64,000 nucleotides of DNA, taken from the sequence record PQ850594.1, one strand, 5' to 3'. Source of the DNA: Escherichia phage AnnaHegner_Bas87. Below, in pieces: positions 51,385 through 62,460 of the stretch (the first letter of the stretch is position 1; each line of letters opens with the position of its first letter). The notes under the pieces were generated by a model that was not told the DNA's origin, searched no databases, and saw only the letters and a list, made by a program, of their open reading frames with translations. The position numbers and the translations under genes were made by a program.

Positions 51385-51460
51385 TGGTGCACCCTACAGG
51401 ATTCGAACCTGTAACCAACGACTTAGAAGGTCGCTGCTCTATCCATTGAGCTAAGGGTGC
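51385..51460 (-). tRNA. tRNA-Arg (anticodon UCU), with encoded CCA
   Basis: cloverleaf folded by hand: 7 bp acceptor stem GCACCCT/AGGGTGC, D-arm GCTC/GAGC, anticodon loop CUUCUAA, T-arm ACAGG-TTCGAAT-CCTGT. Confidence 0.85.
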
Positions 51461-51469
51461 TGGATTTGT

Positions 51470-51679
51470 TTAACTAAAAATACGCAAGGCCACATCGTGA
51501 CCAATATGACCGGGAACTTTATGCTGCTCTATTTTCAGACAGCGCTTACAGATACGAGATACACGAGACTCTTTTCTCTCAACTGGAGTGTCTTTAGCAT
51601 GAGTGATTTGAAGGTTTTCAGTGATCACCCACTCATGTTTACATTCAGAATCTTCGGGCTTTTTCTTACGAAAGAACAT
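51470..51679 (-). CDS. small zinc-ribbon protein, HEW/CxxC family
   Basis: start moved to internal Met (MFFRKKK) with AAGAGGTG RBS; CKHEW...CKRC. Confidence 0.4.
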   Translation of the reverse strand: MFFRKKKPEDSECKHEWVITENLQITHAKDTPVERKESRVSRICKRCLKIEQHKVPGHIGHDVALRIFS

Positions 51680-51687
51680 AACACCTC

Positions 51688-51852
51688 TTAGATCAGATCT
51701 GTTTTCTTGTGCAGACCACACACTTTACAGCGAGAGTAGATACGCAACCCTTGTCGCTCTCTGTCAGTAAGTTTATTTGTGATCGTCAGTTCATAAGTAG
51801 AAAGATCTTCCCACTCATGGAAATGAAATAGACGTTTGAACCATTTGATCAT
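51688..51852 (-). CDS. small zinc-ribbon protein, HEW/CxxC family (not in ORF track)
   Basis: MIKWFKRLFHFHEW...CKVCG, 54 aa. Confidence 0.4.
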   Translation of the reverse strand: MIKWFKRLFHFHEWEDLSTYELTITNKLTDRERQGLRIYSRCKVCGLHKKTDLI

Positions 51853-51861
51853 AATGATTCC

Positions 51862-52023
51862 TTAGATTACATCACGATGACTAACATCACCACACACCTT
51901 ACACTGAATAACGTAACGTGTGCCCTTGTCATTGTTCCCATCTGAATCCGTATAGACCAGAGGACGGGTGTTAATAATCTTCCAATCATGACAATGGAAG
52001 ACACGCTTTAGCCACTTAATCAT
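51862..52023 (-). CDS. small zinc-ribbon protein, HEW/CxxC family
   Basis: start moved to internal Met (MIKWLKRVFHCHDW...CKVCG). Confidence 0.4.
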   Translation of the reverse strand: MIKWLKRVFHCHDWKIINTRPLVYTDSDGNNDKGTRYVIQCKVCGDVSHRDVI

Positions 52024-52024
52024 A

Positions 52025-52282
52025 TTAAGCACACGCCGGTAATTCAATTAACTGAGGAGTACGACAAGGGCCATCCTCATACACACCTACCAGTGTTGGC
52101 ATGTAAGGCCCAGCGCACTGGTATTCATCGAACAGTTCATTGTAAGTAGGCTTCCACTTCCAAGCCCACACATAACCCATTCGATCAATGGCAATGTAAC
52201 GAGTGTTCAGAGGAACCTGCATCATCACATCACCAACTGCTATTACTTTCGTAATAACTGCTGCTCGGAAGTTTGTCTTCAT
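52025..52282 (-). CDS. hypothetical protein
   Basis: ORF only. Confidence 0.35.
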   Translation of the reverse strand: MKTNFRAAVITKVIAVGDVMMQVPLNTRYIAIDRMGYVWAWKWKPTYNELFDEYQCAGPYMPTLVGVYEDGPCRTPQLIELPACA

Positions 52283-53099: not shown

Positions 53100-53130
53100 A
53101 ACAACAAAGGCCACCCCTAAGGGCAGCCTC
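53100..53130 (-). terminator. rho-independent terminator (minus strand)
   Basis: GGCTGCCC-TTAG-GGGTGGCC hairpin (two G-U wobbles on minus strand) then TTTGTTGT. Confidence 0.5.
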
Positions 53131-53134
53131 TTAT

Positions 53135-53338: not shown

Positions 53339-53728
53339 AGAACCAATCACCCTGACGTTTACGGATGTTAGTTGTCAGACGAAGCATGGCAGACTCAATC
53401 TTCAGAGCACCATTTGCCACTGCTTCCATACGCTCAGGACGGTTCATACGCTTGGTTGACTTCTTCATAACGTTCTCTCTTTGTTAGTGGAGGCAGTATT
53501 GCCAGTTAATATAAAGGGAAGCCCTACACGTTAAGGCTTCCGCTTGTACAAACTGTCGAGAACTTTCTACCCCTAGATTGTTCTCTATCCCAAACCGATA
53601 CATACCCCTACATATCGGAAAGCTGTTCGAAAATTAACAGGTTTTAGTCTATCACCGGATGTTTGAGACAAGTCTCGCCCTAGCGGTGAGCCATATGGCG
53701 TTGAGATTATAGTTAATTGAGGAACATC

Positions 53729-61283: not shown

Positions 61284-61311
61284 ACTATATATTAAAGGAA
61301 AAACCTGTCAA
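61284..61311 (-). promoter_or_regulatory. sigma-70-like promoter (TTGACA-16 bp-TATAGT), leftward, within 85 bp element copy B
   Basis: about 45 nt upstream of the 61238 start. Confidence 0.45.
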
Positions 61312-61424: not shown

Positions 61425-61975
61425 TAGAACGGGTAGCAGACCAACGGGATAGATAGATGGGTAAGACGTGCCGCATAGGTTAGCCAATGGGTAAGAAGCC
61501 TAACGAGGAAGGGGAAACGGGTGGGATATAATGTAAGTTAGTTACAGGTAACAGGTCAGACCATGCGGTAATAAATTACCAGTCAAAAATCTACTCATCA
61601 AAAGAAAAAAGAAACGCTGAAAAAGAAAAGAATAAAAGAAAGAATAAAAATAATAACTAAAGTAAACAACTACCAGTCTAAACATACATACATCAATAAT
61701 CCACTCATGAATAATCACATAAGTTATTACATTCAAACTATGGGGGATGGTCATCAATGGTATAGTTGCATAGTGTTACTAGTAGTTATCATAGGTTATC
61801 ATTAGCCTGATCATAGTCACTATTATAGCCCCTTAACAGAGGCTAGCCTTTCATCCTTCCTTAACATGAGTAAGAGAAATACGGGTAGGAAATCACTGGT
61901 TAGATATACATGGGTAAATAATGCATGTGTAATATCAATGGGTAGGGTATTTATGGGTAGGGATACCACTGGTAG
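61425..61975. repeat. iteron-like array 1 of (A/C)(T/C)GGGTA-type motifs
   Basis: at least 8 dispersed copies (e.g. GATGGGTAAG, AATGGGTAAG, CATGGGTAAA, AATGGGTAGGG, TATGGGTAGGG) in ORF-free DNA, separated by a purine-rich A tract. Confidence 0.6.
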
Positions 61976-62184
61976 CAGGTAGGCTAGGGCTTAGAGCTTA
62001 AAGGCTGATTGATTTCCTAAAGGCAATTGCATTGGTAATAACCCTTTTTTAAATGAGGACTCCCCCTTTTTAGGAAACGCGCTCGGAGAGGCTAGGTCCA
62101 TCCGGTCAAATTGAAATTTTAAACTCTTATATATAACTATATGCCCCAACGTTAGTTGTGGATTTAAGAATAAGGAACTATTTT

Positions 62185-62349
62185 ATGTGGAATATTAAGT
62201 TACTAATTAAGCAATTCAAATGTCAACACGAATACTACCCGATACGAATATCGAGAGGTGATGAACGGTTACACGCTTATTACAAGAGTACTTGGAGATG
62301 CGCAGACTGTGGTAAGGTTAGGAATAGTAAATGGGTGGATAGGCCTTAA
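62185..62349 (+). CDS. small zinc-ribbon protein, HEW/CxxC-family-like
   Basis: start moved to ATG 62185 with AAGGAA RBS (track start is GTG 62158); FKCQHEY...WRCADCGK. Confidence 0.4.
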   Translation: MWNIKLLIKQFKCQHEYYPIRISRGDERLHAYYKSTWRCADCGKVRNSKWVDRP

Positions 62350-62460
62350 TGGGTATGCCTTAATGTGGGGTAGCCTTTATGGAGTCCCTTTACTTCAGCG
62401 TACATGGGTTAGTACATGGGTGGGCCTTTAGATGAGTACGCCTTTATGGGTTGATCACTC
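62325..62460. repeat. iteron-like array 2 of ATGGGT(A/G/T) motifs
   Basis: 6 further copies, the first inside the 3' end of ORF 62185-62349. Confidence 0.55.

Follow-up and report, generated by a model that had tools for sequence, protein, structure and literature searches.

Four short genes, designated here A to D, were analysed in a stretch of 64,000 nucleotides (nt) of DNA from Escherichia phage AnnaHegner_Bas87 (PQ850594.1), the whole of which is referred to as the window. Their products are probably early binding modules of 6-8 kDa belonging to a superfamily of phage mini zinc ribbons, in which A, B and D are placed by sequence comparison and C with less certainty, while a specific target could be named with much lower confidence only. 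The four are real genes and new members of an already known family, ordinary in a phage early region, and to phage specialists the finding will come as no surprise, small Cys-rich ORFans being frequent in such regions. If the assignment is confirmed, the gain will lie mostly in annotation. This very widespread family lacks a Pfam or NCBIfam model and is split over several PHROGs of 'unknown' label, and its genes are frequently overlooked or annotated in the wrong frame, the phiEco32 reference being one such case; uniting its groups under the signature [C/H]-x-H ... C-x-x-C-G would permit consistent annotation. The phiEco32-like phages, with four copies and natural knock-out variants, would form a tractable system for examining a role in early infection, and a His-for-Cys swap at one ligand position and fusions to the WDGH domain provide testable leads.

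The four genes, with the lengths of their products in amino acids (aa), are as follows.

51862-52023, minus strand: gene A, 53 aa, MIKWLKRVFHCHDW...QCKVCGD..., putative mini zinc ribbon, PHROG 8294 (E = 2.5e-24)
51688-51852, minus strand: gene B, 54 aa, MIKWFKRLFHFHEW...RCKVCGL..., paralog of A, PHROG 8294 (E = 1.2e-17)
51470-51679, minus strand: gene C, 69 aa, MFFRKKKPEDSECKHEW...ICKRCLKIEQHKVPGHIGHDVALRIFS, PHROG 13426 (E = 1.2e-37)
62185-62349, plus strand: gene D, 54 aa, MWNIKLLIKQFKCQHEYY...GDER...WRCADCGK..., PHROG 7696 (E = 3.2e-12)

The open reading frames (ORFs) described in an earlier note on this DNA were all found where it had placed them. The outer limits that it gave for the A/B/C locus, 51470 and 52047, are those of the longest GTG/TTG-started ORFs, and the likely starts are the ATG codons at 52023 (A), 51852 (B), 51679 (C) and 62185 (D), in agreement with how the closest relative is annotated in GenBank and with the position at which the family domain sets in. 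The ATG of gene A lies 1 nt past the stop codon of the upstream gene, a gap that suggests translational coupling, and Shine-Dalgarno-like motifs are present ahead of B (AAGGA, 6 nt upstream of the ATG), C and D. All four genes are under purifying selection, the ratio of nonsynonymous to synonymous polymorphism (pN/pS) against relatives being below 1 throughout (0.06-0.16 for C, 0.09-0.39 for D, 0.08-0.61 for A and about 0.4 for B). The four proteins are basic, with isoelectric points (pI) of 9.0-9.7, D being the most basic (pI 9.7, charge +6.6). An Rfam scan of the A/B/C locus and the D locus returned nothing besides a tRNA. The notion that the four are chance reading frames in a gene-poor region could draw on their very short length and on the public records, since several GenBank entries leave D unannotated and the phiEco32 reference annotates another frame at its place. 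It is effectively refuted by the pN/pS values (0.06-0.6), the retention of homologs across many phage genera with 1,979 family clusters, the Shine-Dalgarno-like motifs and the stop-start coupling described above, and the confident AlphaFold2 (AF2) models.

In the phiEco32 record (NC_010324), phi32_1 (296-496) is annotated in frame +1 relative to a conserved D-type ORF (253-417), which is itself unannotated and is the homolog of D. As family membership and a pN/pS below 1 belong to the D frame, phi32_1 was probably mis-called. The counterpart of the phi32_1 frame in the window (62258-62431, plus strand) is a mere translation of the repeat array that begins within the end of D and is described in the last section.

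Kinship of the four proteins

A and B share 41% identity (E = 6e-14) and are, as judged from their sequences, clear tandem paralogs. The BLASTP match between A and C is weak (E = 0.004) and A and D gave no BLASTP alignment, so that profile comparison was needed. Using family alignments built from relatives in the phage records, hhalign matched A/B to D with a probability of 83% (E = 9e-6) and A/B to C with 68%, the latter falling to 38% with a more diverse C profile, while the match between C and D was weak. A core hidden Markov model (HMM) was derived from 83 family sequences, none of them from the Gordonclarkvirinae, the subfamily of the phage studied here, and applied to the 559 ORFs of the window. 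Its top four matches were D (3e-12), A (9e-7), B (1e-4) and C (0.036), the next ORF scoring 0.89. In hhalign, the core family matched D with 99.3% and A/B with 96.5% (E = 7e-10), and C with 7% over the first knuckle alone. By these comparisons A, B and D are members of one superfamily, and the relatedness of D as a fourth copy, proposed in the earlier note, is borne out; C is probably a distant member.

An alternative is that the shared motif is partly convergent, with C, and on a stricter view A/B as well, being independent Cys/His-containing ORFs that do not form a family of four. It is favoured by the BLASTP results, by the 7% match of the core family to C and by features of C itself, which has neither a Gly after the CxxC nor the GDE loop typical of the family and carries its own conserved C-terminal extension (E.H.V.GHID.S.A..IFG), common to its homologs in Vequintavirinae myophages (42-48% identity). 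However, the link of A/B to the core is solid in both the profile comparison and the core HMM search, and intermediate sequences bridge the groups, among them P0042, which matches phrog_7696 as well as phrog_8294, and P0031, in which the N-terminus is of the A type (MIKWLKRLF) and the first-ligand pair is the C-x-H of the core family. C itself is found by an HMM built from A, B and D without C (E = 0.0037 among 1,765 ORFs) and always adjoins A/B-type genes. The A/B-C alignment with the diverse C profile covers both ligand pairs at equal spacing, and its score of 23.5 exceeds the highest value reached by 30 shuffled-column controls, 16.4. Convergence is thus considered unlikely.

The three PHROGs matched by the window proteins (8294, 13426 and 7696) are all labelled 'unknown function' and weak cross-hits to phrog_3036, 4188 and 7696 were also observed. 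Together with the related PHROGs 3036, 4188 and 24253 ('zinc-finger domain protein'), they resemble A-D in being phage-encoded proteins of 45-80 aa with a C/H-x-H ... C-x-x-C layout. PHROGs keeps 8294, 7696 and 13426 apart, whereas the present analysis unites 8294 with 7696 and, less securely, with 13426; intermediate sequences match several of these PHROGs at once. Word-indexed protein searches gave four matches with A alone and one with D alone, and became productive once the superfamily alignment was used, a search of a large protein collection with it retrieving 39 proteins, some of them intermediates. A scan of IMG/VR with B returned a single locus. Run against 1.84 billion proteins, the profile of alignment A4 matched 1,979 clusters (50% identity representatives) at E <= 1e-3, and the corresponding HMM separates members (at least 37 bits) from all other ORFs (at most 11 bits). 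The core consensus reads M..[FI]KRLFC.H.[YW].FVRNIYGDEIN..GG.RS.W.C.KCGK, and an artificial core-family consensus retrieved the phiEco32 homolog of D by tblastn at E = 3e-5. On its sequence, D is a canonical member with a GDE(R) loop. Family members occur in many unrelated phages and at other genomic positions. Pfam and NCBIfam contain no model for the superfamily, and searches of these and of PDB sequences gave generic zinc-knuckle noise only. The DUF1660-type prophage proteins, considered as a possible match, were dropped as no Pfam hit supported them.

Ligand pattern and predicted fold

The four ligand positions [C/H]-x-H ... C-x-x-C, with a spacing of 21-31 residues from the His to the first Cys, are present in all four window proteins. 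The regular expression [CH].H[DE][WYF].{12,50}C..C matched exactly four ORFs, A-D, in the six-frame translation of the window and on average 0.015 ORFs in 200 Markov-simulated windows, the pattern having been picked post hoc with the data already seen. In the alignments A3, A4 and A5, His12, Cys41 and Cys44 (A numbering) are invariant, and Gly45 is nearly so in A4 (33 sequences). A and B have His10 as their first ligand, and C, D and most relatives have a Cys in this column; of 166 family sequences, 152 carry Cys there, 10 carry His and 4 carry Gly. The Gly-type sequences are all LUZ24-like (P0014, P0016, P0019 and an ORF of phage TL), and each has a Cys four residues upstream. A recurrent Cys-to-His swap at one position beside invariant partners is what a metal site predicts, and the four ligands would hold one Zn2+. 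A Gly directly follows the CxxC in 154 of the 166 sequences, and 136 of the 166 have a GDE-like loop, located between strands 1 and 2. Among the window proteins, only D has both the loop (GDER) and the Gly-Lys after the CxxC (CADCGK); A and B lack the GDE loop and keep CKVCG, while C has neither (CKRCL). A, B and C are therefore regarded as divergent subfamilies and not as core members.

The earlier note had described a tandem triplet of HEW/CxxC proteins. Its layout is indeed present in A, B and C, and the conserved Cys/His spacing holds upon alignment, with the first ligand being His or Cys; the true paralogs are A and B only, C being weakly related. A MIKW/F start, attributed there to all three, does not extend to C, which begins with MFFRKKK and has only the CKHEW and CxxC elements in common with the others. 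Nor do the proteins end in CKVCG or CKRC, the CxxC lying 9-22 residues ahead of the C-terminus. In the H-C-H of A, the Cys occupies the x (non-ligand) position and the aligned ligand column is His10.

The AF2 model of A, based on alignment A4, has a mean predicted local distance difference test score (pLDDT) of 87, with a helix at residues 3-8 and strands at 14-25, 31-41 and 47-52, and that of D, based on alignment A5, has a pLDDT of 81, with a helix at 2-12 and strands at 17-23, 34-39 and 45-48. A and D are thus predicted to have a common topology of an N-terminal helix and a three-stranded sheet with the ligand pairs adjacent. In the models, the first pair, [C/H]-x-H, lies at the junction of the helix and strand 1 and not in a hairpin knuckle, and the second, C-x-x-C-G, lies in the turn between strands 2 and 3. 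The zinc-ribbon reading of the earlier note is reasonable and consistent with the ligand layout and the predicted three-stranded sheet. Fold searches gave no significant zinc-ribbon match. The sole weak structural and sequence neighbours are zinc ribbons (NrdR, eL43 and Rpb9/RPA12), with all scores below significance. Classical zinc ribbons, such as the N-terminal domain of NrdR, the C-terminal domains of TFIIS/Rpb9/RPA12 and eL43, have a second beta-hairpin C-x-x-C knuckle, whereas the first pair of A-D has one-residue spacing, contains His and lies behind the N-terminal helix; with comparison scores below significance, these searches gave no evidence for shared ancestry or function with the classical ribbons.

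An unannotated A/B-like homolog was also observed at 2402-2641 in Pseudomonas phage TL (L013), one of the LUZ24-like Bruynogheviruses, where it overlaps the annotated gp08 (2190-2570).

Early gene blocks and the variable array

The region 50.5-53.5 kb of the window has 96% DNA identity to Escherichia phage vB_EcoP-101114UKE3 (Suseptimavirus, Gordonclarkvirinae) and also matches 85 records of phiEco32-like phages; by sequence, the window belongs to a phiEco32-like podophage of the Gordonclarkvirinae. The UKE3 annotation lists the counterparts of A, B and C as hypothetical proteins 108-110, located immediately upstream of tRNA-Arg. The right-hand gene block of phiEco32-like phages constitutes an early class, which the sigma70 RNA polymerase of the host transcribes leftward and which is believed to function in host takeover (PMC8948821), and the early genes of SU10 comprise the coding sequences (CDS) 69-125 plus 1-3, with sigma70-type promoters predicted before CDS 1-10 (PMC4281155). 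By homology, all four genes would be located in early-class gene blocks: A, B and C lie inside a long leftward early operon, adjoining tRNA-Arg, and D is the first gene, ~90 nt inside the putative left terminal repeat. Every relative examined has a D gene, and in records starting at the genome end it is found 250-560 nt in from the left.

A near-consensus sigma70 promoter (TTGACA-16-TATAGT, 11/12 matches) was observed at 61284-61311 on the minus strand, directed leftward into the early block, and is probably the main early promoter of the right genome end. The consensus promoter scan found none convincing directly upstream of the A-C array or of D. Two terminator-like hairpins (53106-53131 and 53517-53541, minus strand) lie in the early block upstream of the array, in a number not above the shuffled expectation.

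The position of the terminal repeat was deduced from the relatives. The last 50 nt of the phiEco32 record and its left-end positions 144-193 both align to 62044-62093 of the window, and phage Paul has an annotated terminal repeat of 193 bp whose end coincides with that of this alignment; the direct terminal repeat is therefore placed at ~61845-62093, with boundaries set by homology only, and D would be the first gene inside the left end. Measured in this way, the repeat would span ~250 bp and so exceed the length reported for phiEco32 and Paul, 193 bp. Within the window the right genome end is joined to the left one, and the terminal repeat is present once at this junction, from which it follows that the source record is circularly permuted or was assembled through the repeat.

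The landmark of the A-C array and the content of the array in the window and in the relatives are as follows.

51385-51460, minus strand: tRNA-Arg(UCU), on the strand of gene C and 10 nt downstream of it
Window, TH43, UKE3 and EK5: A + B + C
O18-011: A + C
SU7: B + C
ECBP2: a 48-aa A variant + B + C
XT32: one third-type A/B-like copy + C
phiEco32 and Paul: one A/B-like copy only

The array thus ranges from one to three copies among close relatives, and tRNA-Arg is its conserved landmark in all of them; the neighbourhood of tRNA-Arg is a hotspot of gene gain and loss. In SU7 (L002 2689-2877), which has no A gene, the unannotated B-type gene has the upstream in-frame context MNYRRVL.M, as found before A in the window, suggesting that A was lost when the two genes, A and B, recombined through their similar 5' ends. 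Genes for HNH homing endonucleases were observed beside tRNA-Arg in O18-011 (L006 10776-11192) and Paul (L010 1818-2330); the window has none there.

Proposed mode of action and alternatives

Each protein would consist of a single domain, in which a short and conserved hydrophobic-basic N-terminal helix (..[FI]KRLF) is followed by a three-stranded antiparallel sheet and the [Cys/His]-x-His and Cys-x-x-Cys-Gly pairs would hold one Zn2+ that stabilises the fold. Expression would be early, with A-C read from the leftward operon and D as the first left-end gene, and A and B would have arisen by tandem duplication in a cassette-like, recombining locus. Small, basic and zinc-stabilised, these modules would attach to some macromolecule of the host or the phage at an early stage of infection and thereby serve an accessory part in host takeover or counter-defence, acting neither as enzymes nor as classical DNA-binding initiators. 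An adaptor or targeting role is consistent with the association of the family with the WDGH domain (Pfam PF25311), which is fused C-terminally to the core zinc ribbons P0050, P0089 and P0119 (zinc ribbon in the N-terminal 45 residues). A stand-alone WDGH gene also directly precedes a stand-alone zinc-ribbon gene in the head-tail module of a metagenomic phage contig (L017 1709-2271), and the fusion and the adjacency suggest that the two domains work together. In another fusion, the N-terminal zinc-ribbon module is joined to an unnamed domain of ~90 residues. A search for the WDGH domain in the window found none, and a literature search on it returned nothing; likewise, no functional study of the genes was found in the literature on phiEco32 early genes, LUZ24 early proteins and small zinc-ribbon phage proteins.

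Several points weigh against this proposal. The membership of C is weak, with the core family covering its first knuckle alone, and the scan gave no convincing promoter directly upstream of D. Nucleic-acid binding would agree just as well with the basic charge and the zinc-ribbon fold. The neighbourhoods of family members in metagenomic contigs show no consistent partner beyond the occasional WDGH; they otherwise include runs of small ORFs with DUF551, HNH endonuclease and methyltransferase genes, and a Tad2-like gene 4.5 kb away in one contig.

Known phage proteins of similar build suggest another possibility, that A-D regulate transcription or translation by binding RNA polymerase or RNA. 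Ogr/Delta, the late activators of P2/P4, and Com, the translational activator of Mu, are phage-encoded, basic, single-zinc proteins of ~60-70 residues, of which Ogr/Delta binds the alpha subunit of RNA polymerase and Com binds the mom mRNA. The likeness to A-D in size, charge and the presumed single zinc would be one of functional analogy only, as Ogr/Delta and Com have C-x-x-C ... C-x-x-C ligands and belong to a different expression class and genomic context. A-D are likewise small, basic and zinc-ribbon-like and located among early genes, and their weak structural neighbours are mostly ribbons associated with polymerase or ribosome (Rpb9/RPA12, NrdR, eL43), with a viral Foldseek match labelled 'Ogr/Delta-like zinc finger' (E ~0.1). 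The phiEco32-like phages are moreover known to reprogram the host RNA polymerase by their own sigma factor and gp79 (PMC8948821). Yet the structural scores are all at noise level, and neither Pfam Ogr_Delta nor Zn_ribbon_Com matched A-D at E <= 10, Com being matched once, and not significantly (E = 0.15), among 33 family members. Near-identical phages differ in whether they carry A, B and C, which also argues against an essential regulatory role, and this explanation is given a low probability. Narrowing the proposed docking to counter-defence or host-takeover effectors, with D as an immediate-early protector or inhibitor and A, B and C as diversifying paralogs each neutralising a different host target, is similarly doubtful. 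In T7, the place just inside the left genome end belongs to the anti-restriction gene 0.3 (Ocr), and D would by analogy occupy the corresponding position. If this narrower view were true, the superfamily of ~2,000 clusters would represent a major unrecognised class of phage zinc-stabilised inhibitor modules, some fused to effectors like WDGH.

A further alternative concerns the repeats on either side of D, to whose ATGGGTA units, as iterons, the earlier note had suggested a link.

61866-61980, plus strand: upstream repeat cluster of ATGGGTA/GGGTAGG units, inside the putative terminal repeat
62331-62455, plus strand: downstream array of ~14-nt units, TG-N5-6-GCCTTWA, several starting with ATGGGT

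Ten copies of ATGGGT, each on the plus strand, lie within 61457-62451, as against ~0.6 per kb elsewhere, and D does lie between two clusters of it (61910-61958 and 62331-62451), as the earlier note had observed. Within 61457-61980, the ATGGGTA/GGGTAGG repeats gather at and within the putative terminal repeat. Under this alternative, D, and possibly A-C, would bind ATGGGTA-type repeats sequence-specifically in replication initiation, terminal-repeat generation or packaging. Besides the ten copies on one strand within 1 kb, the conserved place of D between the upstream (terminal-repeat) and downstream arrays in all relatives speaks for such a function, as do its being the most basic of the four proteins and the frequent binding of nucleic acids by zinc ribbons in general. 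The upstream repeats, however, have diverged in sequence while their position is conserved: the relatives have ACGGGG-type repeats or none, phiEco32 and Paul carrying ACGGGG(A) instead of ATGGGTA at the same place. The D alleles assort independently of these repeat types. Between EK5 and Paul the upstream DNA is 95% identical and D only 63%, between O18-011 and Paul D is 98% identical and the upstream DNA only 65%, and type-1 D alleles occur with both ATGGGT and ACGGGG repeats. This lack of co-variation, together with the wide spread of D-type proteins in unrelated phages away from the genome ends, as in the head-tail module of L017, argues against a specific partnership between D and the iterons, and the suggested link is not upheld. 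In addition, A, B and C lie 10 kb from the repeats, and the 54-residue domain of D has no recognisable DNA-reading element and no match to a Rep/initiator family, Pfam, NCBIfam and PHROGs giving no DNA-binding domain (winged helix, helix-turn-helix) for any of A-D. Binding of the repeats is therefore regarded as very unlikely, and early docking modules remain the preferred reading of the four proteins.

As regards the downstream array, its first unit encodes the final five residues of D (W-V-D-R-P) and the array runs ~100 nt beyond the gene. Its position and GCCTTWA core are kept in all relatives examined, whichever allele of D is present, and the array is possibly a terminase or replication site lying near the genome end.

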